Shown here: one piece after another, positions 2,335 to 64,000 of the stretch | How positions within the stretch are numbered: the first letter of the stretch is position 1 | Layout of the letters: every line of letters starts with the position of its first letter | Assembly (NCBI GenBank): GCA_035480235.1 | Contig: DATIHX010000009.1 | Coordinates: 3,857 to 67,856 of the forward strand | Source of the DNA: Candidatus Saccharimonadales bacterium | Lineage (GTDB): Bacteria; Patescibacteriota; UBA1384; 2-12-FULL-50-11 | Length of the DNA stretch: 64,000 nucleotides | Direction: 5' to 3' | Translations under genes and position numbers: made by a program | The notes under the pieces: model-generated | Databases searched by the model: none | The model's input: the letters and a program-made list of their open reading frames with translations, nothing else | What the model was told of the DNA's origin: nothing

Positions 2335-3198
2335 TTGGCTATTCTACCGATGACGGTTGAACAGGCTGTTAAAACGGCCGCCGCGACACTGGAAGATAAC
2401 GGCTACGTTCACGGCGAGCGCGAAGCCGTGATTTTTTTGTCCCATATTCTAAACCTGGACACGACTAATCTTTACAACCGTTACGAAGACAATATCGACC
2501 CGGCCGCCGAGGAACAGTTGGCCGAAGCAGTTGAGACGCGCCTGAAGGGCGCACCGGTGGCGTATATAGTTGGCGATCAAAATTTTATGGGCTGGGCGTT
2601 TTTAAGTGACAAACGCGCTCTCATCCCCCGGCCCGAAACAGAGCAGTTAGTTGAGCTGTTAATTCGCCGCGTTCGCGACCACAAAGTGGAGCGCGGTAAG
2701 TTCTTGGAGATCGGAACCGGGGCTGGCCCGATCGCCATCGCCTTGAAAAAATACTTCCCGCAGGCTGAAATCACCGCCACCGACGTCAGCGAAGAAGCCC
2801 TCGAATTAGCCCAAGAAAACGCCCAGCGCCTGAAAGTCGATATTACCATTGTAGAAAGCGACCTGTTTGACCAAGTGCCGCCAGCCAAATACGACGTTAT
2901 TGTGGCTAACTTACCGTACGTACCGTCACCAAAACTTGATTTTGTGTCTGATCAAATTCTCGATTGGGAGCCGATGGTGGCGATTGATGCTGGCGATGAC
3001 GGCCTGAAATATATCACGCCTTTTCTCGAGCAAATTAAACCGTTTTTGAGTGATTACGGGATTGTCGCCTTGGAGTTTTGGCACACCCACGGCCAACCGG
3101 TCAAAGAGTTGGTCGCCCAACATCTACCAGATCACGAAGTAGAGATTGAGAAAGACCTGGCCGGCTTCGATCGATTCGCGTTTATCACGCCCGAATAA
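2335..3198 (+). CDS. prmC: release factor glutamine N5-methyltransferase (HemK/PrmC)
   Basis: SAM-binding EIGTGAGPIA and an NLPY (NPPY-type) motif, immediately downstream of prfA. Start is TTG at 2335, or alternatively ATG at 2350. Confidence 0.85.
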   Translation: MAILPMTVEQAVKTAAATLEDNGYVHGEREAVIFLSHILNLDTTNLYNRYEDNIDPAAEEQLAEAVETRLKGAPVAYIVGDQNFMGWAFLSDKRALIPRPETEQLVELLIRRVRDHKVERGKFLEIGTGAGPIAIALKKYFPQAEITATDVSEEALELAQENAQRLKVDITIVESDLFDQVPPAKYDVIVANLPYVPSPKLDFVSDQILDWEPMVAIDAGDDGLKYITPFLEQIKPFLSDYGIVALEFWHTHGQPVKELVAQHLPDHEVEIEKDLAGFDRFAFITPE

Positions 3199-3228
3199 AA
3201 AAGCCCCGGTATTAGCGGGGTAAAATTT
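3199..3228. terminator. bidirectional terminator hairpin between convergent genes
   Basis: aaaaaG CCCCG gtattag CGGGG taaaattt. The stem is flanked by A-run/T-run on both sides. Confidence 0.6.
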
Positions 3229-3240
3229 GCTGTCCGCCGA

Positions 3241-3615
3241 CTAATCAGCAGACTCGGTAAGCCGTTCGAGTAGCAACACATCCCCTCCGTGGGCGGAAAT
3301 GGCGAGAACTCGAAAGTTGAACTTCCCTTGACCGTGTTCCCAAGGGATCGTGCCCTCGTGTGGCAGCCTCTTTGGTTCGGTACTGATTTCCGCCATTATT
3401 TCGAGGCGCCGAGTGAACGGATTCTGAAGGTTTTTGGGAACCGTGATAGCTTCTTTCCACGAGCCTTCGATGAAAAAGTCGATCCGCAAAGACGTTTTGG
3501 TGTGTGTGAGGCAGATTTTGGTTGCCCCATCAACAATTGATTGGTCCAAAATCGCCCTCACCAACTTAACAATCGGTGCCTGATTTTCCATCGGCTCAGT
3601 ATCTCTTTCTGACAT
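3241..3615 (-). CDS. stand-alone GspE/PilB N-terminal-subdomain-like protein with no ATPase core
   Basis: GGAGG RBS before the ATG at 3615 (track ORF trimmed from 3672). The pattern IVKLVRAILDQSIVDGATKICL...LRIDFFIEG...TRRLEIMAEIS...LPHEGTI...FRVLAISAHGGDVLLLERL parallels the segment preceding Walker A in the window's own PilB (IVSSLLKRSVREGASDIHIEP...RFRIDG...SRVKILANLKIDE..PQDGRI). Confidence 0.55.
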   Translation of the reverse strand: MSERDTEPMENQAPIVKLVRAILDQSIVDGATKICLTHTKTSLRIDFFIEGSWKEAITVPKNLQNPFTRRLEIMAEISTEPKRLPHEGTIPWEHGQGKFNFRVLAISAHGGDVLLLERLTESAD

Positions 3616-7563: not shown

Positions 7564-7584
7564 GAAGGCCTCCTGAAATAACTT

Positions 7585-7673
7585 TCAATAACCAATAATT
7601 AAGTTGCAAATAATGTTTAATGTTTAAATATTTAAGTAATTGATTATTATTTGTCACTTGAGTATTGAATATT
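7585..7673. repeat. AT-rich palindromic intergenic repeat, copy B
   Basis: Left arm tcaataaccaataattaagttgcaaataat, right arm attatttgtcacttgagtattgaatatt. Confidence 0.8.
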
Positions 7674-7683
7674 GCGCATTCCA

Positions 7684-17504: not shown

Positions 17505-18687
17505 GTTTTTGGATAATCTGGTCGGCTGCTGGCACCGAGGCGATTACCGCTCCCCCCAAGAGCTGGCCTTTTTCACTATAAAAAACGATCGATTGGCCGG
17601 GCGTGATGGCTCGAACCGGTTCGCCAAAACGAACAAGAAGTTCTTCGCCTTTAAGCGAGACCGTGCAATCAACATCTTCCTGACGGTACCGGATTTTGGC
17701 TTTCATCGCAATCTGGCGATGAAAGCCACCCTGAGCAAGCGCTAGCGAGTCGAAGGGTTCTTCCGTTAGCCAATTCGCTTGGCTGGCGACTAGCTCACTG
17801 GCGTAGGTTTGGCTATCCGGCCCAACGATTAGGCGGTTATTTTTCAAATCTTTGGCGATCACAAACAGCGGCGGCACGTCTCCGGTCCAGGAAACTGAGC
17901 CGGCACCCAGGCGTTGGCCGATGGTATAGAGGTTAACACCGTCGTGGTGGGCGATGACCCGACCGTCAGTGAGCACAGCAACGCCAGGTTTTGACTTTAA
18001 GCGGCTAGCCAGAAATTGCCGGACTTTTAGTGGGCCAATAAAACAAATCCCCTGACTGTCTTTTTTGGTCGCCGTCGGCAAGCCGGACTTATTAGCCAGC
18101 TGGCGAACTTGGGGTTTAGTTAAATCTCCGAGTGGAAACAAAATATGCGACAGGATCTCCCGGCTAATCCCCCACAGAAAATAAGTCTGATCCTTGTTCT
18201 CATCATGCGCTTTGAAAATCGCTTGATTCGTAAATCCGAATTTCGAATTTCGAATTTCAAAACTGTTTCGGATTTCGGATTTCGTGCTTCGGATTTCTCG
18301 CAACTGTGCGTAGTGCCCTGTAGCCAGGTAATTTGGCTCGAATTGGCGGACGGCCTGCCAGAGCGCTTTAAATTTAATCTCGCGGTTACACAAAATGTCT
18401 GGGTTCGGCGTGACGCCGGCCGCGTAGCCGGCGAAAAATTCGTCAATGACGGCTTGCTCGTATTCTTTGCTCAAATTAACAGTGTAAAACGGGATTTCGA
18501 GCTTGCTGGCGACAGTCCGAGCGTCGGCTTCTTCGCTCTGCCAGTTGCAGGGGAATTCCTCCGTGCCGGTCCAACCCAAAATGTAGACGCCGATGACGTC
18601 GTAATTCTGTTCTTTCAGCAGCGCCGCTGCGACCGAGGAATCGACGCCACCAGACATTAAGGCAATTACCCGTCCTTTTGAATTCAT
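17449..18687 (-). CDS. mnmA: tRNA 2-thiouridine(34) synthase MnmA, carrying an in-frame repeat insert
   Basis: PP-loop MSGGVDSSVAA, ATGHYA and DENKDQTYFL motifs. Start trimmed to the ATG at 18687. Confidence 0.9.
   Translation of the reverse strand: MNSKGRVIALMSGGVDSSVAAALLKEQNYDVIGVYILGWTGTEEFPCNWQSEEADARTVASKLEIPFYTVNLSKEYEQAVIDEFFAGYAAGVTPNPDILCNREIKFKALWQAVRQFEPNYLATGHYAQLREIRSTKSEIRNSFEIRNSKFGFTNQAIFKAHDENKDQTYFLWGISREILSHILFPLGDLTKPQVRQLANKSGLPTATKKDSQGICFIGPLKVRQFLASRLKSKPGVAVLTDGRVIAHHDGVNLYTIGQRLGAGSVSWTGDVPPLFVIAKDLKNNRLIVGPDSQTYASELVASQANWLTEEPFDSLALAQGGFHRQIAMKAKIRYRQEDVDCTVSLKGEELLVRFGEPVRAITPGQSIVFYSEKGQLLGGAVIASVPAADQIIQKLDGRTDAPAQKKSLTKNG
18232..18300. repeat. in-frame heptamer-repeat module, inverted pair (mnmA copy)
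   Basis: aaatccgaatttcgaatttcgaatttcaaaac tg tttcggatttcggatttcgtgcttcggatttctcg. It encodes EIRSTKSEIRNSFEIRNSKFGF inside MnmA. Confidence 0.8.
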
Positions 18688-26913: not shown

Positions 26914-26938
26914 CCGCTCAATCGAGCGGGGATTTTTT
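26914..26938 (+). terminator. intrinsic terminator
   Basis: CCGCTC aatc GAGCGG gga TTTTTT. Confidence 0.65.
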
Positions 26939-29906
26939 AAATTCGGTCGAGCAGACTTTCGTCGAGTTCGGCCAGGAAGCGGCTGGGCAGCGTTGAGGTT
27001 AAGCCGCCGTGAATGATCCGCTGGCGGGCGTGCGTCAGGTACAAGCGTTTGCGGGCCCGGGTCATGCCCACATAACAAAGCCGGCGCTCTTCGTCCATCT
27101 CGCTTTGGTCTTCCAGCGCTCGCAGGTGCGGGAACAGGCCCTCTTCCATCCCGGTCAAAAAGACGGTCGTAAATTCCAGGCCTTTGGCGGCGTGCATGCT
27201 CATCATCGTCACCGCGTCAGCCGAGCCGTCGTAGTTATCGACGTCCGAAACTAAGGCGACGTGTTCTAAAAAATCTTCCAGATTTTCAAACTCGAAGGCC
27301 AAGTTTTTTAATTCTTCGACGTTCTCCCAACGAGCCTCGCCCTCGGGCGTGCCGTCGTTCACATAGTCCTGATATTTGATCGTTTTCAAAAGCGTCTCTA
27401 TAACCACTTGCGGCGTACTTTCGGCGACCATCGCTCTTAATGTCGCCATCTCGTTCAAAAAAGCCTGGACTTTTTCGCCGCCAGTGGCGAGCGTTTTTGG
27501 CCCGATCCCGCGGGTTGGCACGTTAATAATTCGGGCCAGCGAATGGGTATCGCTCTGGTTCAGCAAAAAGCGCAGATAGGCCAAGATGTCTTTGACTTCT
27601 TTCCGTTCATAGAAGCGCAGGGCACCGATCAGCCGGTACGGCACGCCTTCGTTTAAGAAGATTTCCTCGATCACCCGCGACTGGGCATTGGTCCGGTACA
27701 AGACCGCGAACTCGCCCCAATTTTTGCCCATGTTGTGGAGAACCCTGGCTTCTTCAGCGATAAAATCCGCTTCGCCGTAAGCGTTGTGAGCCTCGAAAAC
27801 GGTGATCGGCGGCCCTTCTTCGTTATCGGTCCAGAGTTTTTTGTCGGACTTCCTTTTGATCCGGTCAACAATTTGATTAGCGCCCTTAAGGATGGTTTTG
27901 GTCGAGCGGTAATTCTGCTCCAGTTTAATAACGGTCGTGCCGGGAAAATCCCGGGCGAAATTGAGGATATTTTTGAAATTGGCCCCGCGCCAGCCGTAAA
28001 TAGAGTTGTGCACTACAATGCCATTTGCAATAAGGGTGTTGCTTTCAACTACGTCAATATCATAAACGAGTCCCTCGTATTGCTCAAAAACCACTTCAGC
28101 AATTTCAGCGGTGACAACTTTCCCGTCCTCAACTATCGGCACAAGCATACCTGGGCGTAAATGAGCAGCCGGTTGCCAGGGGAAGTTTCTATCTTCCTTG
28201 GTTAGTCGGGCCGCTCGGTGTAAATCGACTTCGCCAGCTTTGCTCAGCTCTTCCGCTAAAGTGTAAGCGTCCGCAAAGTGCTTGCGCGATGTTTCCACAC
28301 GACGACTCTTTTTATCAGCCCGGGTTTCGATACCAGCGTTCGATAACCGCTCCAATAAGGCGGTGTTGCTTGTAGTCAAGCGGACACGGTGAGCATGCCA
28401 AGGCAACTTTGTTTCGACACGGCTATCGCCGAATTGGATTAAATAAGCTTGAGCCCGACCAGGGTAAAGGTTAGACAGTTCAGTTGTCACCGCCTGTGGT
28501 CGAAAATGTGGGTACTCGGAAAATAAAAGATAATCAGCCATTAAATTCTCCGCATTGGTGGTCGTATCGATTTCTTTATAAATCTGATCAATGTGTTTCT
28601 GGGTAAATGTCAGTCCGTCTCGACCCAGCGAAAAGAATAGTACTTTGGGGATCTGGTATTTGAGTGAGAGAAGCTCCTCCTGGTAACGGGCTTCAACTAA
28701 ACTACTCGTGACGACGATAATCCACATTTTATCGGCTCGTTCTTGATTCGCCCTAGCAAGTAAACCGTTTATTTCGCCTTTACCGGGGTTACGAATACCC
28801 CGCGTTATTCCCAATCGATAGCCCTTATCAGCCCGGAACATCAGGTAAACGTACCACTGACCTTCTTTCGGCTGGAGACGGGCGAAACAAATATGTTCCG
28901 GTGTCATCGTAACCGAGCGGCCGGATTTTGTTCTAATCTGTACGACACTGCCCTTATATTTCGTGGTTCTTACTTCGTTGACAGAGAATTGCTGCGTTTC
29001 TCCAAAACCACTGGCAGCCACAATCTTGGTGCCTTTTTTCACTTTTTCAATCGGCAATTCTTTTTCTAGAGTCAGGACTTTAGTATTAGGTAATAGGCAC
29101 TGGTAATCGTCGCCGACGACGCATAAATTCTTGGCGGTTGGGTTCATCAGCGCCAATGTCAGCCGGTACTGGGCGTGGTTGGTGTCTTGATACTCGTCGA
29201 CCATCACGTATTTGAAGAGTTTGTTGTACTTGGCTTTGATCGCTGGGTTGTTCTCGAGCATCCGAACTGTTTCACCGATTAAGTCGTCAAAATCCAGCGC
29301 CGAGAGTTTTTTTAGCTCTTTCTCGTAATTTTTGAACACGTCGACAGCGATCGTTTGAAAGTGGCCGTCGGCGTAGGTTTCGTACTGGGCCGCCGTTTGC
29401 AGCTCGTTTTTGGCGTTGGAGATAATGCTGCGAATCGCCTGGGGGCTGTATTGTTTCGGGTCGAGGTTTTTGTCCTTGAGGGCTTGTTTGATCACCAAGA
29501 GTGAGTCGTCGGAATCAAAAATGGTGAAGCTCCGGCTCAGGCCGATATTTTCGGCTTCAGCGCGGAGCAACCGGACGCAAATGCTGTGAAAGGTGCCGAC
29601 CCAAGGCAACCGGCGACGCATCACTAAATTCGGGTTTTTGGCCCAGGCGCTTTCGTCGTGACCGAGGATTTTTAATATCCGGTGGCCGAGTTCCTGGGCG
29701 GCTTTATTAGTGAACGTCACCATCAAGATTTCATCGAGCTCGGCTTTGTGTTCGGCCACGATATAGGCCATACGGTGGGTCAGGCACTTGGTTTTGCCGG
29801 AGCCGGCCCCGGCCAAGATTAAAACCGGCCCTTCGGTCGCCCGGACCGCTTCCTGCTGCGGCTCGTTCAAATCCGTAAAAATGTCGGTGGTTTTTGTCTC
29901 ACTCAT
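26937..29906 (-). CDS. pcrA: UvrD/PcrA-family DNA helicase interrupted by an intein
   Basis: Walker A GAGSGKTK, DEYQDT, motif III split as VGDDYQ | intein | SIYGWRGA, and later helicase motifs (VTMMSMHAAKGLEF, LCYVGMTRAR). Start trimmed to the ATG at 29906. Confidence 0.9.
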   Translation of the reverse strand: MSETKTTDIFTDLNEPQQEAVRATEGPVLILAGAGSGKTKCLTHRMAYIVAEHKAELDEILMVTFTNKAAQELGHRILKILGHDESAWAKNPNLVMRRRLPWVGTFHSICVRLLRAEAENIGLSRSFTIFDSDDSLLVIKQALKDKNLDPKQYSPQAIRSIISNAKNELQTAAQYETYADGHFQTIAVDVFKNYEKELKKLSALDFDDLIGETVRMLENNPAIKAKYNKLFKYVMVDEYQDTNHAQYRLTLALMNPTAKNLCVVGDDYQCLLPNTKVLTLEKELPIEKVKKGTKIVAASGFGETQQFSVNEVRTTKYKGSVVQIRTKSGRSVTMTPEHICFARLQPKEGQWYVYLMFRADKGYRLGITRGIRNPGKGEINGLLARANQERADKMWIIVVTSSLVEARYQEELLSLKYQIPKVLFFSLGRDGLTFTQKHIDQIYKEIDTTTNAENLMADYLLFSEYPHFRPQAVTTELSNLYPGRAQAYLIQFGDSRVETKLPWHAHRVRLTTSNTALLERLSNAGIETRADKKSRRVETSRKHFADAYTLAEELSKAGEVDLHRAARLTKEDRNFPWQPAAHLRPGMLVPIVEDGKVVTAEIAEVVFEQYEGLVYDIDVVESNTLIANGIVVHNSIYGWRGANFKNILNFARDFPGTTVIKLEQNYRSTKTILKGANQIVDRIKRKSDKKLWTDNEEGPPITVFEAHNAYGEADFIAEEARVLHNMGKNWGEFAVLYRTNAQSRVIEEIFLNEGVPYRLIGALRFYERKEVKDILAYLRFLLNQSDTHSLARIINVPTRGIGPKTLATGGEKVQAFLNEMATLRAMVAESTPQVVIETLLKTIKYQDYVNDGTPEGEARWENVEELKNLAFEFENLEDFLEHVALVSDVDNYDGSADAVTMMSMHAAKGLEFTTVFLTGMEEGLFPHLRALEDQSEMDEERRLCYVGMTRARKRLYLTHARQRIIHGGLTSTLPSRFLAELDESLLDRI
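28005..29099 (-). mobile_element. intein (365 codons) in helicase motif III
   Basis: Starts with Cys (CLLPNTKVLT), has block B TPEH, and ends ...NGIVVHN followed by extein Ser. Removing it restores VGDDYQSIYGWRGA. Confidence 0.85.
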
Positions 29907-29937
29907 GCGCTCATCAGCATAGCGGAAGTACGGAGTA

Positions 29938-29963
29938 GAAAAAAGCCGCGGATATACCGCGGC
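29938..29963 (-). terminator. intrinsic terminator separating the 724-aa gene from pcrA
   Basis: Minus strand: GCCGCGG tatat CCGCGGC TTTTTTC. Confidence 0.7.
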
Positions 29964-29970
29964 GGGTTCG

Positions 29971-32145
29971 TTAGTTGGCCTTAGCTGAGGCAACTCCCAA
30001 CTTGAAAACCAAGCTACTCATATTGCTATCTCCCAGGTCGAGATACCGTCGGGCTGCCCGAATTATGGCCGCATCTCCGGTTAGGAAGATGGCCCACTCG
30101 AGCCAGGCTTTGGCTTCCATATCGGCTTGATGGGCAAGGAGCCACCGCTTGAAATCTGCCACGCCTTTGTGGAACTCAAGCCAGTCAAACCAGAATTGCC
30201 GCTGGACATCGTAATTGTGGCGCAGAACGCCACGCAACTTAGCCAGCGCTTGGAGGAACATCCTTACCTGGTCCGCTTCGCTGTAGCCGTACTTTGCAAC
30301 GAACCGAGCCTTCGCTTCGTCCGAATGACCCTTACTCTCTTTATGGTAATCGATGAGACTCTCCTCGATCCAGTTTTCGGCAAACCATGCATCCACCTTT
30401 TTCCGCCATCGAGAATTGAGCCATTGTTTCGGCCTGTCAGCCGAGCTAACTAACTTAATAACGACGTCCTGAGCATGAGCGTATCTTTCTCGAGAATGGT
30501 TAATAGCCCAAGCGATTTCCAGTAATGCAGCTCGCACTTCGGCATCTCGATCGAATCGGGACATGAGATGCTCTTGGAGCCAGGCCAATTTGCCTTCATA
30601 GCCTCCTTCGGGCTGATAGAAGAGCGCTGAAACCACTACATCTTTGACGGCGACGCCGCAATCAAGGAGTGTATCCCGCCAGTGAGCGTCAGCCCAAAAG
30701 GCAGCCGATTCTGGCAGCGCTTCCCTTCCAGCGTAGTGGGATTGATAGGGCAAGATTGCCCGAACCACATTTTCGCTTTGGAGATCGGCCCTTACTAGCT
30801 GATAACCGGCCTTATAACAGGCTTCGGCATGATCTTCATTTGCGCTCAGGAGAGCACCTGGTTGAATGCCCCAAGGAATAACAAACTCCTTTACGAGCTT
30901 TTCCAGGCGATAAGCCAAATAACGCTCTTTCGGAGCTACGTAGCTGGCAATCCAACGACGCAAAACGGCCTTAGCCGCCTCCTCGTCGGGTTGGTCAGCC
31001 AGCCAGTCCGCCAGCTGACCAGCGTCAAGCTTATCGGCTACCGGATCAATCGAACCGGCGAGCTGGCGCCGACTCTCCTCCGGCAACTCGCTGTAGAAGC
31101 AATCCCAATCCCCGCTTTCAACGGCTAGCCGTCTCAGATACGGTGCAGCGATCCCGAAGGGCAGCTGCATAAGGACGTCGTAGAGCCGGGGAGCGCGATC
31201 TTCCGGAGCGCCTTTGTGGAGCGGATGCTCCTTATTGTTATGGGCAGCGAACCAACCCTCCAAGTTGGTCGTTAGCCCAGGGCTAATCGCTAGCTCCGGC
31301 AGCAACTCGTTTGCCAGCCGCCACGCGTAGTGGCTGTTGATACCAGCGAGCTCGGCGCGCTCAGCCGAGCTGAGCTCGCCGATGAACCGCTTCACAACCT
31401 TAACTGCATACCTTGAGACGTAGTCGTTTCGGTAGCTCGAGCCTTCTTTGATCACTGGCTCGCCCCGCAACGCCCCAACTAGTTCCGGCCAGAGACCACG
31501 GGGCAAGGCCCCGAGAAGAGTCGTGGGCGTCCTATCCTTTGAATGATCGACGGACTCGTCAAAGATCCAGCAGAATAAGTGTTGTCGCAAGTCTGGCAAA
31601 TGAGCCAGCTCCGGTAGCCCAACAGTTTCATTGACCAGACTTGCCAGGTTATCATCCCTCGGTTGGTAGACCCAGCGACAGGCCTGGTAGAATTCGACGT
31701 CGTTGTCGGCGGGTCGGTGGGTATACCGTCGCCCCAATCTACAGGCGGTGGCAATTTCCTCCCAGCTGACTTGCCCGTTTCCGGTAATCCGCGCCCAGAC
31801 CTGGTGCGCCGAGGTTGGGACCAGCGAAAGGTTGCGGACGAGGAACTTGTCGATGAAAGATTGCCGATTGGCGGCCGAATGGTTGGCTGCGTACAGCAAG
31901 CTTGTCAGCACCAGCGGATCGGTCTCCCGAGCCTGAAGATGCTCACGAGCTACGCGAAACAGTGGCGAGTCAGGATTCAGGGCGTTACTGGCCAAACTCT
32001 CGACTGCCAGCCGTGAGTTCCAGGTGCGCTCATCTTCGAGCAGGAACTTTAGGCCTAAGTTTCGAGTGCGATTATCGAGTTTGGCTCGGAAATCGAGACG
32101 ATGCATCAGGGTTTTACCCCATTCAGATAGATTAGCAGTGTTCAT
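29971..32145 (-). CDS. large orphan protein (724 aa), Trp-rich and helical-looking, no recognised motif
   Basis: AGGAGGAAGT RBS before the ATG at 32145. Uninterrupted 2.2-kb ORF with its own terminator. No signal peptide, TM helix or Walker motif seen. Confidence 0.8.
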   Translation of the reverse strand: MNTANLSEWGKTLMHRLDFRAKLDNRTRNLGLKFLLEDERTWNSRLAVESLASNALNPDSPLFRVAREHLQARETDPLVLTSLLYAANHSAANRQSFIDKFLVRNLSLVPTSAHQVWARITGNGQVSWEEIATACRLGRRYTHRPADNDVEFYQACRWVYQPRDDNLASLVNETVGLPELAHLPDLRQHLFCWIFDESVDHSKDRTPTTLLGALPRGLWPELVGALRGEPVIKEGSSYRNDYVSRYAVKVVKRFIGELSSAERAELAGINSHYAWRLANELLPELAISPGLTTNLEGWFAAHNNKEHPLHKGAPEDRAPRLYDVLMQLPFGIAAPYLRRLAVESGDWDCFYSELPEESRRQLAGSIDPVADKLDAGQLADWLADQPDEEAAKAVLRRWIASYVAPKERYLAYRLEKLVKEFVIPWGIQPGALLSANEDHAEACYKAGYQLVRADLQSENVVRAILPYQSHYAGREALPESAAFWADAHWRDTLLDCGVAVKDVVVSALFYQPEGGYEGKLAWLQEHLMSRFDRDAEVRAALLEIAWAINHSRERYAHAQDVVIKLVSSADRPKQWLNSRWRKKVDAWFAENWIEESLIDYHKESKGHSDEAKARFVAKYGYSEADQVRMFLQALAKLRGVLRHNYDVQRQFWFDWLEFHKGVADFKRWLLAHQADMEAKAWLEWAIFLTGDAAIIRAARRYLDLGDSNMSSLVFKLGVASAKAN

Positions 32146-32412
32146 ACTTCCTCCTAAGGAAGGGGCGCGAGACCGTCGCGCACGGTGGCAAACAGCCTAC
32201 TGGGTTTTCATGCATCAGCTTGAGCTCTGCGGTAAGGTTACTCCAACGCCTATTGGCAATACCGACCTGTCTTGCTGAGTAGAAAACTTTTTGACTTGCC
32301 GAAGACCGTGTTAGCGCTGCTTAGCGTTGAATTTAACACGGGCCAAATTGTTCAAGAACAGAGCCTGGGCTCATCAAAAGGATTGTGGCAGATATAAACC
32401 CTGGAAACAATG

Positions 32413-32467
32413 AGCTACTTGGCTACGGCTTTTTGCTTCCGCTCGACGTCGAAGAAACGGGCTTGCT
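32413..32467. repeat. degenerate copy of the dnaB 3' terminus (direct repeat A)
   Basis: About 46 of 55 positions match 33319-33373, with a 25-bp identical core tcgacgtcgaagaaacgggcttgct. Read on the minus strand it encodes ARFFDVERKQKAVAK* versus the dnaB tail ARFFDVERKQKVATK*. Confidence 0.85.
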
Positions 32468-32486
32468 TTTATGGTAAGATTGCCTC

Positions 32487-32918
32487 ATGGAATGGCTGTC
32501 GCTGGCGGTGTTTACTTCGGTTGGTTACGGCTTGTACAACTTTTTCATTAAAGCGGCCTCAGACAAAATTAACCCACTACTAGCGACGTTTTACCTCACC
32601 TTGACCGCCGCGATTGTCAGCGGCATTGCTTTACTAGTTTTGCGGTCGCTCAACTTACTACCAGCCGTTCACTCTACCCGCAGCGGCGTGGCTTTGGTGA
32701 TCGCCGCCGGGGTTGCTACCGGCGTGGCCGATTTGTTGTATTTTATTATGTTTGCGCGCGGCCAAAGCTTGAACGTTGGCTTGCCATTCGCGCTCGGCCT
32801 AGCGACGGTTTTGGCAATTACGTTGTCAATGATTTTTCTACACGAGACGCTGACTATTACCAAAACGCTCGGAATTATTATTACTCTCGTCGGCATCGTC
32901 ATCTTGGCTAAGTATTAA
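32487..32918 (+). CDS. half-size EamA/DMT-like membrane protein (143 aa)
   Basis: Single EamA-like repeat with about 5 TM helices. TGgTAAGAT extended -10 lies 6 nt upstream of the ATG. Confidence 0.7.
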   Translation: MEWLSLAVFTSVGYGLYNFFIKAASDKINPLLATFYLTLTAAIVSGIALLVLRSLNLLPAVHSTRSGVALVIAAGVATGVADLLYFIMFARGQSLNVGLPFALGLATVLAITLSMIFLHETLTITKTLGIIITLVGIVILAKY

Positions 32919-32930
32919 AAAGGGCGCCAT

Positions 32931-33263
32931 TTAGGCGCCAGGATTTTCGTTAACTGCTAAATCCGGGATCACTTCGAAGTCAGCCAAGAACACTGAGTGA
33001 AAAGAACCGCCCGTCTTCAAAACGTTGGCTTGCCCGTAGAGCCGAACAATGGCTATGCGCTGGGTTGCAAGGGGCGAGAACACTTCAAGGCTCTTAAAGA
33101 ACAGCTGTTTACCAACTTCATAGTCTTCGTCGGTCATGGTGCCCGTGCTGAATTCAAACATCTTGCCATCCGCTACCAAGTCAGCCATCGCCTGCTGCCA
33201 AGTGGCAATTTGTTCAAGATTGGCCTGCGGCGCACCGATCACTAATTCACAAGTCCGTACCAC
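32931..33263 (-). CDS. hypothetical protein (110 aa)
   Basis: ORF that fills the cassette. No motif recognised. Confidence 0.5.
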   Translation of the reverse strand: MVRTCELVIGAPQANLEQIATWQQAMADLVADGKMFEFSTGTMTDEDYEVGKQLFFKSLEVFSPLATQRIAIVRLYGQANVLKTGGSFHSVFLADFEVIPDLAVNENPGA

Positions 33264-33318
33264 AACTCACCTCCTCCGGTGTAGTGAGAATATTCTAGCA
33301 ATTCTACCAGAGAAATCA

Positions 33319-33373
33319 AGCTACTTCGTCGCGACCTTTTGTTTCCGTTCGACGTCGAAGAAACGGGCTTGCT
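33319..33373. repeat. dnaB 3' terminus (direct repeat B)
   Basis: Partner of 32413-32467. Confidence 0.85.
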
Positions 33374-34685
33374 CGGCGCGGAAGTGCAGCTCCACTTCGC
33401 CGATCGGGCCGTTCCGGTGTTTCCGAATCAAAATATCGGTCATGCCTTTGCGCTCGGTGTCGCGCTCGTAGTAATCTTCGCGGTAAATAAACATCACCAC
33501 GTCGGCGTCTTGCTCGATGGAACCAGAGTCACGCAAATCCGAGAGTTGCGGCGTTTTTTTGTCGCGGCTTTCGACGGCCCGAGAGAGCTGCGCCAGGGCC
33601 AGCACGGGGACATCCAATTCACGGGCCAGCGCCTTCAAATTCCGGGAGATCTCCGAGACCTCTTGAACCCGGTTGTTGTCGCCGTAACCGCCGCTCATGC
33701 CGCCGCTAATGAGCTGTAAATAATCGACGACGATTAAACCGAGATTGTGATCGGCCTTCAGTCGTCTGGCTCGGGTGCGGATATCAAGTGTGGTCAGCAT
33801 CGGCGAATCGTCGATAAAAATCGGCGCCTCGGCCAACGTTCCCATCGCCATACCGATCGCCGGGAAATCGTCTTCGCTGAGGTTGCCGGTGCGCAGTTTC
33901 CAGCCGTCCACCATCGCTTGGGCGCAGATCAACCGGTCGACCAACTGCTCTTTGCTTTGCTCCAGCGAAAAGAAACCAACCGGTGTCTTGCCTTTGACGG
34001 CCGCGTTCAAAGCCATGTTTAAGGCCAGGGCGGTTTTTCCCATAGAGGGTCTGGCCGCCAGAATAATTAAGTCGGAGTTCTGAAAACCGGAGAGCTTGTG
34101 GTCGAGATCGCGGAAACCGGTAGTGACGCCGCGTAAAATCCCTTTTTCGCGGTGGAGCTGGTCGATCCGGTCGAAGCTCGAAGCCAGAATGTCGGAGATC
34201 GGCATGAAGTTGTCTTTCACCTGGGCGTGCGAGACTTCAAAGATCGCTTTTTCGGCTTGGTCCAGCACTTCGGCGACCTCGCGGTCTTCTTCGTAACCGA
34301 GTTGGCTGATTTTTTGGCCGGCCGTTAAGATTCGCCGCAAGACCGCTTTTTGGTGGACGATCTCGGCGTAGTGGGCGACGTGAATGGCGGTTGGTACCGA
34401 GTTGACCAGTTCGGCCAGGTAGGCGGCGCCGCCAACGCCGTCGAGCTGCTTGACCCCTTCCAGCTCGTTAGTCAGTGTTACTAAATCGATCGGCGCCCGT
34501 TTGTCGTAGAGGCGCAAGACCGCCCGGTAAATCGTTTGGTGATCGGTCCGGTAAAAATCGACATCGGTAATAATGTCGGCGATTTTGTCCATCGCGTCTT
34601 TGCTGGTTAAGACCGCGCCGAGCACCGCCGCTTCGGCCTCGATATTCTGCGGCGGGATTTTGCCGAGTAATTGTTCTTTGGCCAT
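33321..34685 (-). CDS. dnaB: replicative DNA helicase
   Basis: Walker A ARPSMGKTA, IVVDYLQL and the RecA-like core, with a DnaB N-terminal domain (PQNIEAEAAVLGAVL). Confidence 0.95.
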   Translation of the reverse strand: MAKEQLLGKIPPQNIEAEAAVLGAVLTSKDAMDKIADIITDVDFYRTDHQTIYRAVLRLYDKRAPIDLVTLTNELEGVKQLDGVGGAAYLAELVNSVPTAIHVAHYAEIVHQKAVLRRILTAGQKISQLGYEEDREVAEVLDQAEKAIFEVSHAQVKDNFMPISDILASSFDRIDQLHREKGILRGVTTGFRDLDHKLSGFQNSDLIILAARPSMGKTALALNMALNAAVKGKTPVGFFSLEQSKEQLVDRLICAQAMVDGWKLRTGNLSEDDFPAIGMAMGTLAEAPIFIDDSPMLTTLDIRTRARRLKADHNLGLIVVDYLQLISGGMSGGYGDNNRVQEVSEISRNLKALARELDVPVLALAQLSRAVESRDKKTPQLSDLRDSGSIEQDADVVMFIYREDYYERDTERKGMTDILIRKHRNGPIGEVELHFRAEQARFFDVERKQKVATK

Positions 34686-34761
34686 CGTCTTTTAAGTACT
34701 ACGGTTTTTTGAAGAATTTTCAATGACTACTATATGCGGCTAGCGCCGCAGCTCTCTTTTC

Positions 34762-34918
34762 CCAGAGGATAAGGGGCCTACTTGCGAAGCGGCCCCCTAC
34801 CCTCTGGACTCCCACCCCTGCACGCTTCCCTTCGGGGAGAGGAGGAAACGGATGGCTGGAAACCGGAAACTGTCACGGTATCCTCCATCGGTTTCAGGAA
34901 ACTATTTTATTGGCGGCA
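34762..34918 (+). ncRNA. structured-RNA-like element, copy 2 (unknown family; strand tentative)
   Basis: Helices CCAGAGG/CCTCTGG, GGGGCC/GGCCCC, TTCCC ttcg GGGAG and AAACGGATGG/CCATCGGTTT. Candidate promoter TTGAAG-16 nt-TATATG at 34709-34736. Confidence 0.45.
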
Positions 34919-34934
34919 ACAAGAAGAAAACCTC

Positions 34935-34963
34935 TTGACTTTTCAGGGTTAACATGTTAAAGT
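34935..34963 (+). promoter_or_regulatory. sigma70-like promoter with extended -10
   Basis: TTGACT, 17 nt (ending in TGT), TAAAGT. Confidence 0.55.
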
Positions 34964-34991
34964 TAGCCCAACAATCCCCAAGGAGAGTTGA

Positions 34992-35342
34992 ATGTACCGA
35001 ACCTTAAGTATTGCCGCGATAGTTTCGTTAATCACCATCTTTTTTTGTCTCCTGGTCGTTATCGGATGTGAGCCGGAGCAAAATCACCAATCGTCCACTC
35101 CGCCAGCATCGGCGATGGCTGTAGGCAAACTGGTGAAAATCGTACCAATCCAAACGTCCTGGAACGAGTCCCAGCGAAGCCAGGTCGTCACCGACAAAGC
35201 AACGTATATTGTCATTGGCTACCCCAGCGGCGGGCTTTCAACAGAGGTAAAACTCGAAAAAGGACCAGATGCACTAGAGCCTTACTATCTCTGGATTGAG
35301 CAGCCGGACGGCGAGTTCCGAAGATACACTTCCAGCGGCTAA
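34992..35342 (+). CDS. small lipoprotein (116 aa)
   Basis: AAGGAGAG RBS. Signal peptide with lipobox LVVIGC. Confidence 0.65.
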   Translation: MYRTLSIAAIVSLITIFFCLLVVIGCEPEQNHQSSTPPASAMAVGKLVKIVPIQTSWNESQRSQVVTDKATYIVIGYPSGGLSTEVKLEKGPDALEPYYLWIEQPDGEFRRYTSSG

Positions 35343-35352
35343 ATAGCCGTGG

Positions 35353-35379
35353 CCACATCTCAAAGTGATGTGGTTTTTT
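35353..35379 (+). terminator. intrinsic terminator (overlaps the dnaX stop)
   Basis: CCACATC tcaaagt GATGTGG TTTTTT. Confidence 0.65.
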
Positions 35380-36910
35380 ATTTCACTTCTTCCAGCTCAA
35401 AGACGTCGACGACGGCTTCCATGAGGTCGTCTTCGCTTTTGACGGGAATGCTGAGTTCGGTTTTAACCACCGAATCCAAAACCAGCGGTTTGCCGGCGAC
35501 GGTTTCGGCGACTTTTTCCAGTAACTTCCGGTTTTTGATCTCGCCAAGGCGGTCGGCGTAGAACTTGAATTTAACGGCGATAATCAGCTTATCGTCGGTT
35601 AGCTCGGCCAGTTCAGCGGCCCGAACGACGGCGTACAAGGCGTGATTGTGGTTTTTCACTTCGGCGATAAAGCGCGGCCAGAAATCCCCACTATCAGTTG
35701 GTGGGGCAGCAGCTTTGGGCGATTCGGTAACCGCGTCCACCGCTACCGGCGTCTCTTCGGCCGGTTTTTGAATATCCATCGGGGTTGGTTTACCCTGAGC
35801 CTGGTCGAAGGGAGCGTCTTCAGCTTTTTCCGCCACACCAGTTTTGGTAATTGGAATTTCGGTATTGGAATTTGTTTGTGATTTGGGATTTGGAGTTTGA
35901 AGTTTTCCGCTTTGCTGCAGCAGCCGGGCCACCAGTAAAGCGGTTGGATCGGCCGAGACCCGGGCCCGGGCCAGAGTGGCTAAAAGCATCTCCAACAAGT
36001 CGGCGGTTTGGCCGAGCGCTGCCGGGTCGCTGGCGCCCAGTAACTCTTCCCGTAATTCGTCGGCGACGGCTTTCACCAAAACCGCTAGGTCACTACCCGT
36101 CGCCAAGGCTTCGGTTAATAATCTTTTGACGGCCGTTTGGTCGCCGGTAATCAGCGCTATTTTCAGAGCCGCCACCGTTTCGCCGGGCGGCAAACCCAAG
36201 AGCACCCGCACCGCCCCGGCATTTAAATCGGCCGCGCCGCTCAAACTGCCAAGGAGCGTTAAGGCGTCGCGGAACGAGCCCTCGGCCCGGCGGGTAATTA
36301 AATTTAAGCCCTCGTCATCTAGAGTAATTTTTTCCTGCTTGGCGATGGCTTTTAAGACGCCGAGCAAAGCTTCCGGCGAGGCCCGGTGAAACTGGTAGCG
36401 CTGGCAGCGGGAAACGATCGTCACCGGCACTTTTTGCAACTCGGTGGTGGCTAGAATAAAAATGACGTGGGCTGGCGGCTCTTCCAGGGTTTTCAGTAAA
36501 GCATTGAAGGCTGAAGTAGAAAGCATATGGACTTCGTCGATGATGTAAACCTTGTATTTAGCACTGCTTGGCGCGAAGCCGACCTTTTCCCGCAACTCAC
36601 GGATATCGTCCACCCCGTTATTAGAGGCGGCATCAATCTCAATGACGTCCAACAGCTGGCCGTTATCAAACTGGAGGCAGATCTCGCACTGCCCACACGG
36701 CTCACCGGCCTTTGAGCGGTTTTGGCAATTAACCGCCCGGGCCAGCAGCCGAGCTAGGCTGGTTTTGCCGGTGCCGCGCGGGCCGGAGAACAAATAGGCG
36801 TGGCCCACCGAGTTGTTGGTGAGTGAATTGGTAATGGCCGTAATTAAATGGTCTTGGCCGACGACCTCGGAGAATTTAGTGGGACGGTAGGTTCGGTAAA
36901 GCGATGACAT
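35378..36910 (-). CDS. dnaX: DNA polymerase III subunit gamma/tau
   Basis: Walker A GPRGTGKTS, a Zn module (CQNRSKAGEPCGQCEIC), DEVHML and SRCQ. Start trimmed to the ATG at 36910. Confidence 0.9.
   Translation of the reverse strand: MSSLYRTYRPTKFSEVVGQDHLITAITNSLTNNSVGHAYLFSGPRGTGKTSLARLLARAVNCQNRSKAGEPCGQCEICLQFDNGQLLDVIEIDAASNNGVDDIRELREKVGFAPSSAKYKVYIIDEVHMLSTSAFNALLKTLEEPPAHVIFILATTELQKVPVTIVSRCQRYQFHRASPEALLGVLKAIAKQEKITLDDEGLNLITRRAEGSFRDALTLLGSLSGAADLNAGAVRVLLGLPPGETVAALKIALITGDQTAVKRLLTEALATGSDLAVLVKAVADELREELLGASDPAALGQTADLLEMLLATLARARVSADPTALLVARLLQQSGKLQTPNPKSQTNSNTEIPITKTGVAEKAEDAPFDQAQGKPTPMDIQKPAEETPVAVDAVTESPKAAAPPTDSGDFWPRFIAEVKNHNHALYAVVRAAELAELTDDKLIIAVKFKFYADRLGEIKNRKLLEKVAETVAGKPLVLDSVVKTELSIPVKSEDDLMEAVVDVFELEEVK
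35846..35910. repeat. in-frame heptamer-repeat module (dnaX linker copy)
   Basis: ggtaattggaatttcggtattggaatttgtttgtgatttgggatttggagtttgaagttttccgc. It encodes KLQTPNPKSQTNSNTEIPITK. Confidence 0.65.
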
Positions 36911-61578: not shown

Positions 61579-61956
61579 TTAGCCCTTCAGCAGCGCTTTA
61601 ACCTTTTCCACCAGCTCCTGGGGCTTGATTTCGGTTTTGTGGTAGAAACCTTGAACCAAGTTTTTGGTTTGAGTTTGGTACTCAGGGTTGGGGAGGGCGG
61701 TGAGGATAATAATCGGCAGGTGCTTAGTCTCGGGGTGCGAGCGCAAAATTTTGAGCGTCCGCATCCCGCCTTGGCGCGGCAACATCAGGTCTAAAACAAC
61801 GGCGTCCGGCTCTTGGGCTAGTGTCACACTCACCCCTTCTTCGCCGTCACCAGCCTCCAAGACATCAAAATTGTTATGGGTGAAGATTTCTTTGTAGAGC
61901 GTTCGGAGCGTGACGTCGTCTTCAACTAGTAGAACCTTCATTAGTTTAATATCCAA
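61579..61956 (-). CDS. receiver-only response regulator
   Basis: VLLVEDD...VVLDLMLPRQGGMRTLKILR...IIILTA. Confidence 0.85.
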   Translation of the reverse strand: MDIKLMKVLLVEDDVTLRTLYKEIFTHNNFDVLEAGDGEEGVSVTLAQEPDAVVLDLMLPRQGGMRTLKILRSHPETKHLPIIILTALPNPEYQTQTKNLVQGFYHKTEIKPQELVEKVKALLKG

Positions 61957-62049
61957 TAATCAATAGCTAAGTTGCAAATAATATTCAAAATTCTAAATAA
62001 TTAATTGATTTTTACTTGGTTATTATTTGTAACTTGAGTATTGAATATT
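61948..62049. repeat. AT-rich palindromic intergenic repeat, copy C
   Basis: Left arm aatatccaataatcaatagctaagttgcaaataat, right arm attatttgtaacttgagtattgaatatt. Confidence 0.8.
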
Positions 62050-62050
62050 A

Positions 62051-64000
62051 TTAATTAGTTTCCAACGCCTGCTCGGTTTTGGCCCAGACTTTCAGCTGGT
62101 GGGCTGACCATTTACGCAGCTCGTCGGCGACGATAATTAGTATGGCGACGCCAGCGCAAGCGAACAGGGCGTTGACGCTTAACGGCACCGTCCCGAGCAG
62201 CCGGTTACCGAGCGGGTGGTAGACGGCTAGAACTTGGAGAACCAGCGACAAGCCGAAGAGGCCGATCAGCGGCCGGTTGGTGTCAGGAGAGAGGCTAAAG
62301 ATCGATTTGGTTTCGGAGCGGCTGGCAAAAAGGTTGAAGATTTGGAAGAAAACCATCGTCGTTAACGCGACAGTTCGGGCCAAGGCCAAGCTGCCAGTGA
62401 CGCTGTGAAAGAGAATTAATGTGCCGATAGTCATCACTAGAGTAGCGAGTAAAATCCGCCGCGCCATTGAACCGTCAAGCAAGCTCCGCCCCTTCAGACG
62501 GGCTTTTTTCGTCATGAGGTTAGCTTCGGCTGGCTCAAAAGCCAAGGCGGCCGAAGTGACGCCGTCGGTGACTAAATTCATCCACAAAATTTGAACGGCG
62601 GAGAGCGGAATCGGCCAGCCGAGGCCCAAAGCAGCGATTAAAATTAATGCCTCGGCGACGCTGGTGGAAAGCAAATAGTAAATAATTTTCCGCAAATTGG
62701 CCCAGATCAGCCGACCTTCTTGGATGGCGGCGACGATGGCGCTTAAGTGGTTGCCGAGCAAGACGATATCGGCCGCTTCCTGGGCGGCGTCGGTGCCGCC
62801 GCGGCCGATCGCCACCCCGATGTTGGCGGCTTTGAGGGCTGGCGTATCGTTGACGCCGTCGCCGGTCATCGCCACGATCTCGCCCTGCTTCTGCCAACCG
62901 GCCACGATCGCTAGTTTTTCCTCTGGGCTCAGCCGGGCAATAACGTCAATGTTTTGGAGCGAATGAGCGTGGAGCTCGCTGGCGTGAACGGCCACGGGTT
63001 CGGCACTAATGCCAACTTTCTGGGCGATCGTTCGGGCGGTTAGTAAGTGGTCGCCGGTCAGCATCACCACTTTGACGCCGGCCGCTTGGGCAGCAGCAAT
63101 GGCCGCCCGGGCATCCAGGCGGACTTGGTCGTTGAGTGCTAAGAAGCCCACAAAGGTTAGCGGGTTAATTTTTGGCGAAACGACCGCTTCTTTCTTGGAT
63201 CGATCAGCGTAAGCCAGGGCGATGACCCGGTAGCCGGCTGCAGCGTAGCTGTTGGCCGCTTCGGTCAGGCGCGATCGGCTCTCTTGCAGGAGCCGGCGGC
63301 TCTTGCCGTCTGGGCTTAGTTGAAATTCGGCCAGTTTGAGAATTTCTTCCGGCGCGCCCTTGGCGATTAACCGCTCGCCGCGGCCGAATTGGTGAACAGA
63401 GATCGCGGCCCGGCGGTGACGGTCGTAGGGCAGCTCTAAGAGCTCTGGGTGGGCTTTTTCTTCCAGAAAGGCGTAAAAGCCGGCCTTGGCCGCCACCACT
63501 GCTAAAGCCGTTTCCGTGGGGTCGGTGAGCTGCAAGATTTCGTCGCGTTTTAAATCGGCCGGGCCGATGGTAGCTAAAGTTGAGAGCGCCGAGAGCTCAA
63601 GAAGCAGCCGAGCGGCCGGTTGTTTGGTGATTTCTACCTTGTCATCGCCTTGGTAAAAGTGGCCCGATAACCGGTAGCCGTCGCCGTCCACCCGATATTC
63701 GCTTCCAGCCACCAGCAGTTTTTCGACGGTTAATTTGTCTTCGGTTAGCGTCCCGGTTTTGTCGACGCCGATCAGCGTCACGCTGCCCAGCGTTTCGGCG
63801 GCCGCCAATTTCCGGACCACTGCGCCGTTTTGGAGAATGTTTTTAACGCCCACCGCTAGGACGACCGTGACGGCGATTGGCAAGCCTTCCGGCACCATCG
63901 AAACTAACAGCGAGACGACGATTGTCACCATTGAAAGTAGGCTATTACCCCGACTTAGGCCGACCAGTAAAACTGCGATGGCCAACAGCACGCCGATCGC
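62051..64000 (-). CDS. cation-transporting P-type ATPase; N-terminal part lies beyond the right window edge
   Basis: DKTGTLT phosphorylation motif, MLTGDH and TGDGVNDTPALK. The reading frame stays open to position 64000. Confidence 0.9.
   Translation of the reverse strand, partial: AIGVLLAIAVLLVGLSRGNSLLSMVTIVVSLLVSMVPEGLPIAVTVVLAVGVKNILQNGAVVRKLAAAETLGSVTLIGVDKTGTLTEDKLTVEKLLVAGSEYRVDGDGYRLSGHFYQGDDKVEITKQPAARLLLELSALSTLATIGPADLKRDEILQLTDPTETALAVVAAKAGFYAFLEEKAHPELLELPYDRHRRAAISVHQFGRGERLIAKGAPEEILKLAEFQLSPDGKSRRLLQESRSRLTEAANSYAAAGYRVIALAYADRSKKEAVVSPKINPLTFVGFLALNDQVRLDARAAIAAAQAAGVKVVMLTGDHLLTARTIAQKVGISAEPVAVHASELHAHSLQNIDVIARLSPEEKLAIVAGWQKQGEIVAMTGDGVNDTPALKAANIGVAIGRGGTDAAQEAADIVLLGNHLSAIVAAIQEGRLIWANLRKIIYYLLSTSVAEALILIAALGLGWPIPLSAVQILWMNLVTDGVTSAALAFEPAEANLMTKKARLKGRSLLDGSMARRILLATLVMTIGTLILFHSVTGSLALARTVALTTMVFFQIFNLFASRSETKSIFSLSPDTNRPLIGLFGLSLVLQVLAVYHPLGNRLLGTVPLSVNALFACAGVAILIIVADELRKWSAHQLKVWAKTEQALETN

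Follow-up and report, generated by a model that had tools for sequence, protein, structure and literature searches.

Immediately downstream of the replicative helicase gene dnaB, a Candidatus Saccharimonadales bacterium carries a small two-gene cassette, encoding an EamA-type transporter and a 110-residue protein (ORF110; ORF, open reading frame), that is bracketed by a duplication of the dnaB 3' end: the copy adjoining dnaB is the working end of the gene, and the far copy is an orphan. We propose, with moderate confidence, that this arrangement records a homology-driven acquisition in which incoming cassette DNA, equipped with its own copy of the dnaB tail, recombined with the resident gene through a 25-bp identical core and displaced the resident tail downstream. 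Homology-driven recombination of a relative's DNA fits the locus better than a self-mobile element does, and the locus is a new and fairly ordinary case of a type of recombination scar already known, here in a phylum that has been little studied. Positions below are numbered within the 64-kb stretch of DNA that was analyzed (64,000 nucleotides, hereafter the window), and labels of the form L### denote related dnaB loci.

A repeat search of the window returned a two-copy direct repeat of 55 nt, with 906 bp from start to start (Table 1). The copies agree at 47 of 55 positions (85%), a slight revision of the roughly 46/55 given in an earlier note on this DNA, which had rightly described direct repeats sharing a 25-bp perfect core. 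That core, TCGACGTCGAAGAAACGGGCTTGCT, has exactly two matches in the window with three mismatches permitted, and none is expected by chance (0.00 in 100 dinucleotide shuffles). The note had also proposed a search for further copies; run on the window and on viral contigs, it recovered the two known ones and no third. The right copy comprises the final 17 codons and stop of DnaB on the minus strand, reading AEQARFFDVERKQKVATK before the stop, and the dnaB reading frame does end there, as the note had said. The left copy has a stop codon directly upstream and no start codon, which makes it an in-frame orphan joined to no gene and bears out its description as attached to nothing. Similarity between the copies begins abruptly at the core and ends 2 nt past the stop, and the orphan aligns with the dnaB tails of four relatives (L004, L172, L171 and L174) right up to the stop.

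The window derives from a metagenome-assembled genome (MAG), a reason to consider whether the repeat is an assembly artefact or a chance similarity. Misassembly is very unlikely: at 25 bp the exact repeat is shorter than the final k-mers usually employed, and eight positions distinguish the copies. The order recurs in two further assemblies. A Logan contig from run SRR9179560 matches the window at 99.98% identity across 5,834 nt, both copies included, and a second MAG encodes identical EamA and DnaB proteins and a 99% identical ORF110 as consecutive proteins HSX42232-HSX42234. With no chance matches expected either, we give artefact or coincidence next to no credence.

Between the repeats lies a compact, self-contained module of 851 bp, in which two convergent genes have their own promoter-like sites and a common hairpin. 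ORF calls and a single Pfam EamA domain agree with the earlier identification of a half-size EamA gene and a 110-aa ORF. The PF00892 match covers residues 3-140 of the 143 in the transporter (53.8 bits against a cut-off of 28.2); canonical EamA/DMT members have two EamA domains, and the protein may be a small DMT/EamA-type exporter or importer that would act as a dimer. ORF110 has no match in Pfam, NCBIfam, PHROGs or PADLOC, and its database relatives come only from its own species. In L091, a relative from Hainich groundwater, the corresponding place is taken by a 107-aa ORF that shares 31.5% identity with ORF110. A single-sequence AlphaFold2 model of ORF110 was unusable (predicted local distance difference test score of 42).

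The hairpin between the convergent genes has six GC pairs followed by CTTTTTAATA on the minus strand, with T-runs on both sides, and its position is conserved in L091; it is likely a shared bidirectional terminator. The TTGATT...TAGAAT site just past dnaB is the putative ORF110 promoter, and L091 conserves CTTGATTT and a TAGAGT box downstream of its own dnaB. At the other border, the extended -10-like box that the earlier note had placed beside the left repeat is indeed there (TGGTAAGAT, with the orphan beginning 4 nt beyond it), and its short distance to the ATG suggests a leaderless EamA mRNA. This box is the last cassette sequence homologous to L091, where it aligns with TAGGAT. In L091 a TTGATA -35 element lies 17 nt upstream of the EamA -10; in the window, the orphan occupies that position.

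To place the cassette in context we compared about 170 related dnaB loci, obtained from DnaB scans of one-genome-per-species contigs, Joint Genome Institute (JGI) metagenomes and a protein collection. The window DnaB is 73-90% identical in amino acids to Patescibacteria DnaB, and the gene order dnaX-dnaB-uvrD-G5 is conserved across the related loci. The dnaB|uvrD junction, by contrast, is a general hotspot, with contents that differ from relative to relative and are unrelated (Table 1). It is empty, with dnaB abutting uvrD, in at least 14 loci (L002, L003, L007-L009, L021, L023, L027, L074, L087, L088, L095, L173 and L174), among them the closest relative found, L174 (DnaB 90%), in which uvrD starts 38 nt past the dnaB stop, and L173 (DnaB 84%). 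The comparison of empty and occupied sites that the earlier note recommended thus finds empty sites in many relatives. A duplication shared by all relatives, which the note had named as the observation that would speak against insertion, is not what we see: no other locus has a duplicated dnaB tail, which is unique to the window's species. One alternative occupant shown in Table 1 is ORF-X, an unannotated gene directly after dnaB whose family members are 23-47% identical to one another. It has four carriers, all within the window's larger clade and two also within the immediate one, and it is probably the ancestral junction content there. We found no remnants in the window of ORF-X or of the relatives' other gap genes.

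L091 and its close relative L166 are the only loci with cassette homologues at this junction, and their EamA proteins are 61-62% identical to that of the window (61% for L091). These two loci have neither ORF724, the large ORF that follows the orphan in the window, nor a dnaB-tail duplicate or flanking repeat. A candidate decayed orphan between their EamA and uvrD genes ('AFYQIE', resembling RFYDIE by eye) did not stand out from 2000 shuffles (p=0.3-0.9), and no repeats were found around the other junction insertions inspected (L001, L004, L006, L090, L091 and L169-L172). In a neighbor-joining tree of DnaB, the window groups with L086, L174, L169 and L172 (bootstrap 94) within a larger clade (99), and L091 falls in another clade (bootstrap 100), among whose other members are empty sites. 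Within the clade to which the window belongs, we found neither cassette gene, even as a homologue, beside any member's dnaB. The cassette is thus patchily distributed, and at least 5-6 independent losses would be required had it descended vertically; its gain by transfer in the window's lineage is the more parsimonious account.

Which of the two tails is the newcomer can be judged from their neighbors and from their letters. An alignment of the window to L091 runs unbroken from dnaB as far as the EamA -10 box, taking in the ORF110 promoter, the two cassette genes and the hairpin, and gives out within 7 nt of the orphan. The working tail thus belongs physically to the segment that bears the cassette. 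A codon-by-codon comparison with ten relatives revealed that the cores of the two copies are identical at 25/25 positions, while relatives match the same core at 18-23/25. The orphan's 27-nt tail matches those of L172, L171 and L004 at 21/27 positions and the working tail at 19/27, and the working tail is the outlier, at 14-16/27 to the same three relatives. At the eight sites that differ between the copies, the majority of relatives agree with the orphan at five and with the working copy at two, with one tied. No difference falls in the 25-nt core and all eight fall in the 30-nt tail (hypergeometric estimate, p about 0.005). Three of these differences lie in the conserved ERKQK codons, and each of the three is synonymous. 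RKQK and the exact core are common to the two copies, a combination seen in no relative. Such a core/tail mosaic is the pattern expected if a crossover within the identical core had joined resident and incoming alleles. On this evidence we infer that the orphan is the displaced resident end and that the working tail, the last ~30 nt of dnaB, was imported.

In the scenario that we favor, the ORF110-EamA module would have been acquired horizontally and entered the variable dnaB|uvrD junction of a Saccharimonadales-like Patescibacterium on DNA that also carried the last ~55 bp of a closely related dnaB. Recombination with the resident dnaB through the identical core could have taken either of two routes, a single (Campbell-type) crossover of a ~906-bp circular intermediate, or a double crossover with a donor that was already repeat-bounded, in which dnaB would serve as the long arm and the orphan tail as the short second arm. 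The product would consist of the resident dnaB body with the imported tail (VATK and stop), then the cassette, then the imported core with the resident tail (AVAK and stop), leaving this orphan ahead of the spacer, ORF724 and uvrD. Throughout, dnaB would remain intact and the essential gene unharmed, and no dedicated integrase would be involved, host homologous recombination acting instead on a relative's DNA. Direct observation extends to the repeat, the gene content, the empty sites, the patchy distribution and the core/tail mosaic; we infer the direction of transfer, the position of the crossover, the recombination machinery and the form of the intermediate. Single-crossover (Campbell-type) integration characteristically leaves a structure of this kind, in which a direct duplication of exactly the shared segment encloses the insert and the two copies are reciprocal chimeras, and in Escherichia coli inserts flanked by a duplication of the homologous segment were traced to a single crossover with a circular molecule (PMC3240628). 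Natural competence, shown for cultivated Saccharibacteria (PMC10633639), offers a possible route for relatives' DNA, and pilus- and type II secretion-type genes 3 kb away count in the same direction.

Several observations weigh against this scenario. The tail comparison comprises eight sites only, and dnaB tails are hypervariable. We found no donor genome with both the working tail (FFDVERKQKVATK and stop) and the cassette; the relatives that do carry the cassette are all distant (EamA 61%, ORF110 31%), and their tails are of the FYDID type. The cassette has diverged from L091 about as much as the flanking genes (DnaX 51%, UvrD 59-69%, G5 39%), which also fits an ancient vertical presence followed by many losses. 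Sliding-window identity shows no recombination breakpoint inside dnaB, where relatives are 65-85% identical in DNA and the comparison is uninformative. No same-species empty site or excised form is on record, and the DnaB 90% cluster consists of a single sequence. Mechanistically, a 25-bp block of identity is close to the shortest that RecA-type recombination can use, and natural transformation imports linear single strands, so that the origin of a circle is unaccounted for.

The earlier note read the locus as the classic signature of an element integrating into a gene's 3' end while supplying a replacement end, and remarked that no integrase or recombinase was present. The structural part of this reading holds, given the empty sites, the unique duplication and the clade-typical orphan tail, and the absence of a recombinase extends well beyond the unit. 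No recombinase or integrase domain was found in EamA, ORF110, ORF724 or ORF116 (an ORFan between dnaX and dnaB) with Pfam, NCBIfam, PHROGs and PADLOC, and precomputed Pfam annotations contain no recombinase within about 8 kb on each side, a region of housekeeping and pilus/type II secretion system (T2SS)-type genes only, the latter 3 kb away. Family annotations likewise show no integron integrase nearby. PHROGs and PADLOC searches were empty save for one hit of no significance, the cassette genes have no toxin, immunity or defense match, and a phage, plasmid or defense origin found no support, since EamA, ORF110 and the core are without relatives in viral contigs. The integrative element itself is what is not supported: there is no recombinase in the unit or within about 8 kb and no further copy of the core in the window or in viral contigs, and the L091/L166 cassette lacks a flanking repeat.

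One could still imagine a site-specific cassette, a 906-bp element whose attP mimics the dnaB end and whose crossover site is the core, mobilized in trans by a host Xer-like recombinase or a helper element. The core is perfect, has a 10-12-bp palindrome and is surrounded by GTTTC/GAAAC symmetry; homology breaks off abruptly, the replacement end preserves both the frame and the stop codon, the same cassette occupies the same junction in two separate clades, and empty sites exist. The palindrome, however, is accounted for simply by the codons TTC-GAC-GTC-GAA (F-D-V-E), the core is absent from viral contigs, and no recombinase is encoded in the unit or its surroundings. Moreover, L091 and L166 have neither the repeat nor a detectable decayed orphan (p=0.3), and other insertions at the junction consist of unrelated genes without flanking repeats or att-like scars, making this explanation rather improbable. 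A related and speculative proposal, to which we assign a similarly low probability, is that the repeat-bounded unit is a recombinase-free, self-targeting mobile cassette that spreads among competent Patescibacteria by homologous recombination. A fragment spanning the unit would then be a natural knock-in construct, with a long arm in dnaB and a short one in the orphan tail and its 25-bp core, and the cassette could leave as a 906-bp circle by recombination between the repeats. Homology-facilitated illegitimate recombination (HFIR), which we judge unlikely, would instead require that a relative's linear fragment (the 3' part of dnaB, its tail, ORF110 and EamA) was anchored homologously inside dnaB and that its far end, just past the EamA -10 box, was joined illegitimately 55 bp upstream of the resident stop, duplicating the tail. 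Competence is known in Saccharibacteria (PMC10633639), a mechanism of this type has been proposed for similar orphaned 3' ends in type VI secretion system (T6SS) and Rhs loci (PMC5361080), and the left border of the cassette seems to cut the EamA promoter between an L091-type -35 and the -10, as an arbitrary breakpoint would. In E. coli, however, true HFIR typically gave deletions in the recipient, with 3-10 bp of microhomology (PMC3240628), whereas the window has a duplication; and the illegitimate joint would have had to meet, by chance, the start of the 25-bp identity block that excludes all eight differences (p about 0.005).

Two further explanations leave the cassette native. In a mirror-image event, the cassette and working tail would be original, inherited vertically from an ancestor in common with L091, and the orphan tail, the 267-nt spacer and ORF724, possibly with the 5' part of uvrD, would have arrived from a relative with ORF724 after dnaB, with an anchor in uvrD and an illegitimate joint upstream of EamA. 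Only the window's lineage has ORF724 and the UvrD intein, the divergence of the cassette from L091 is in line with that of the flanking genes, and the orphan resembles an ordinary clade-type dnaB tail. Against this stand the at least 5-6 independent cassette losses required in well-supported clades, the prevalence of ORF-X rather than the cassette (in four relatives of the larger clade, two within the immediate clade of five), the lack of any dnaB linkage of ORF724 homologues elsewhere, and a 25/25 core identity left without a mechanistic role; we consider this reading distinctly improbable. An origin in situ, without transfer, would involve either replication slippage or a tandem duplication of the dnaB tail and cassette followed by deletion of the second cassette, with later divergence of the tails. 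Direct repeats flanking a unit that is native in L091 would be explained, as would the RKQK and exact core common to both copies and found in no relative. Yet two precise events would be required, the cassette is absent from the window's own clade, and the unconstrained orphan is clade-typical while the selected working copy is derived, the opposite of what would be expected. The distribution of differences (0/25 against 8/30) and the synonymous changes in ERKQK also point to divergence within two functional genes, and we give an origin in situ very little chance.

Among known systems, Campbell-type integration at E. coli lacZ (PMC3240628) resembles the acquisition proposed at dnaB in outcome: a direct duplication of the homologous segment, reciprocal chimeras, no dedicated recombinase, and reversibility by recombination between the repeats. 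In the window the flanking duplication is the shared segment and the copies are reciprocal chimeras, the latter judged from a small sample. The differences are of scale and of substrate, with 55 bp of homology (25 bp perfect) and a hypothetical circle here, and duplications of 109-950 bp and a conjugated plasmid in E. coli. The C-terminal displacement described for Rhs, contact-dependent inhibition (CDI) and T6SS loci (PMC5361080; Kirchberger et al. 2017; Jackson et al. 2009, as cited in PMC5361080) similarly brings a new 3' end with downstream genes and orphans the old end together with a piece of conserved core, without an integrase. Homologous recombination, alone or combined with illegitimate recombination, has been proposed for such orphaned ends (PMC5361080). 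A displaced orphan 3' end is likewise present here, but those tips are toxin domains accompanied by immunity genes and serve weapon diversification, whereas the window has a 9-residue helicase tail, cargo unrelated to dnaB, and neither a toxin tip nor an immunity gene.

The junction as a whole recalls the minimal mobile elements (MMEs) of Neisseria, reportedly defined by Saunders and Snyder in 2002 by conserved flanks, interchangeable contents and a lack of mobility genes. Their exchange is attributed to natural transformation and recombination in the conserved flanks. The dnaB|uvrD site is a hotspot of this kind, lying between conserved genes with differing or no content and no mobility genes. 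Unlike the clean, scarless double crossovers of the Neisseria elements (for the term, see PMC3082526 and PMC1538595), the event here has one junction inside the dnaB tail and left a duplication, and the taxa compared are far more divergent. Integrase-mediated islands, prophages and integrative mobilizable elements (IMEs) in gene 3' ends share with the window direct repeats of the target gene (attL/attR), an in-frame replacement end and empty sites. They differ in that the window unit has no integrase or excisionase, is smaller than 1 kb with two cargo genes, has no further copies, and has a related cassette without att-like repeats. With flanking repeats and empty sites present, but neither an encoded recombinase nor recurrent repeat-bounded insertions, the window unit is not a member of this family.

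Table 1. Features of the dnaB|uvrD region in the window, and contents of the same junction in related loci
Feature	Location	Strand	Description
uvrD	26937..29993	-	1018 aa with intein; Pfam UvrD-helicase E=3.5e-78, Intein_splicing; conserved right-hand neighbor of dnaB
ORF724	29971..32145	-	724 aa, lineage-specific; between orphan and uvrD, belonging to the variable content of the site and lying outside the repeat-bounded unit
Spacer	32146..32412		267 nt, without detectable features; between orphan and ORF724
Left repeat copy	32413..32467	-	Orphan dnaB 3' end; reads stop, KQARFFDVERKQKAVAK, stop in the same register
25-bp core, left copy	32443..32467		Includes 10-bp palindrome TCGACGTCGA; putative crossover segment
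Extended -10-like box TGgTAAGAT	32472..32480	+	7 nt upstream of the EamA ATG; putative promoter
EamA/DMT transporter (cassette gene 2)	32487..32918	+	143 aa, single-domain (half-size); Pfam PF00892 E=3.3e-14
GC-rich hairpin GGCGCC-N5-GGCGCC	32923..32939		Between the convergent genes; terminator scan
ORF110 (cassette gene 1)	32931..33263	-	110 aa, ORFan; convergent with EamA
Promoter-like site TTGATT-16 nt-TG-n-TAGAAT	33292..33319	-	Consensus match for ORF110; starts 2 nt past the dnaB stop
Right repeat copy	33319..33373	-	Working dnaB 3' end (QARFFDVERKQKVATK and stop) plus 2 nt past the stop
dnaB	33321..34685	-	Replicative helicase, 454 aa, intact; Pfam DnaB_C E=2e-107, DnaB N-terminal domain E=5e-35
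25-bp core, right copy	33349..33373		12-bp palindrome TTCGACGTCGAA at 33348-33359
Junction content: ORF-X	L086 (3238-3999), L172 (2787-3422), L171 (8428-9102), L004 (3211-3843)	opposite to dnaB	210-253-aa gene
Junction content: 114-aa ORF	L169		
Junction content: 227-aa ORF	L001		
Junction content: 305-aa ORF and ORF-X	L171		
Junction content: purF-like gene	L006, L089		
Junction content: 2.7-kb ORF pair	L094		

Beyond the orphan, the spacer shows no similarity to any relative. The 340-nt intergenic region between EamA and ORF724 was considered as a site for an RNA element or riboswitch, a possibility we set aside (no Rfam match at E<=1; fold z-scores of -1.2 and +0.4). ORF724 belongs to no family at meaningful scores in Pfam, NCBIfam, PHROGs or PADLOC and is absent from all related dnaB loci. 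Among 1.84 billion representatives it has 17 remote homologues (24-30% identity over about 700 aa), whose gene contexts are unrelated, so that the gene is not a dnaB-linked one elsewhere. The UvrD intein lies at about 28065-29093 (Pfam Intein_splicing/Hint, residues ~301-643), where local GC falls to 0.44-0.48, and the UvrD matches of all ~20 relatives examined skip it, with tblastn alignments jumping from residue ~300 to ~644-664. DnaB inteins also occur in the clade, outside the window, as in a 591-aa DnaB (P0081) with an Intein_splicing domain, and the DnaB of L010 is split by an insertion of ~1.2 kb after residue ~397 (about 2337-3580).

On the other side of dnaB, the dnaX|dnaB junction (34686-35377) is variable too. 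In the window it holds the 116-aa ORF116 (34992-35342, plus strand), on the opposite strand and with a lipoprotein-like N-terminus; in close relatives it holds nothing, a sigma-70-like or RNA-polymerase-alpha-CTD-like gene (L169, L171) or a 315-aa ORF (L086). No flanking repeat was seen there. Two further repeats occur in the window. An AT-rich imperfect palindrome of ~105 nt is present in three copies (2225-2340, 7573-7680 and 61941-62055; about 80% column identity), in intergenic gaps between co-directional genes. It folds into a long hairpin (z=-3.4 relative to shuffled sequences) and may be a small repeat element or a terminator/promoter module. At 73-109, 18262-18298 and 35871-35907 there is a diverged repeat of 37 nt (TTTGGGATTTGG-like), probably not a mobile one, whose last copy lies inside dnaX in a low-complexity stretch read as PNPKSQTNSN.

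The locus preserves a clean, datable footprint of gene gain in an ultrasmall soil bacterium of the Patescibacteria, a group with tiny genomes, few recognizable mobile elements and recently demonstrated natural competence. Small accessory genes have recurrently landed at the junction that follows dnaB, and an essential gene can apparently be used as a landing site without damage, since the incoming DNA replaces its variable tail; a 25-bp block of identity appears to have been sufficient for the exchange. The orphan tail is also a caution for annotation, being a pseudo-3' end and not a gene, and the dnaB|uvrD site is a candidate neutral insertion locus for Saccharibacteria genetic tools. Should the cassette indeed carry a built-in homology arm, it would be a minimal mobile element with homology aimed at the end of an essential, universally conserved gene, and would account for the movement of accessory genes among these bacteria without integrases or transposases.

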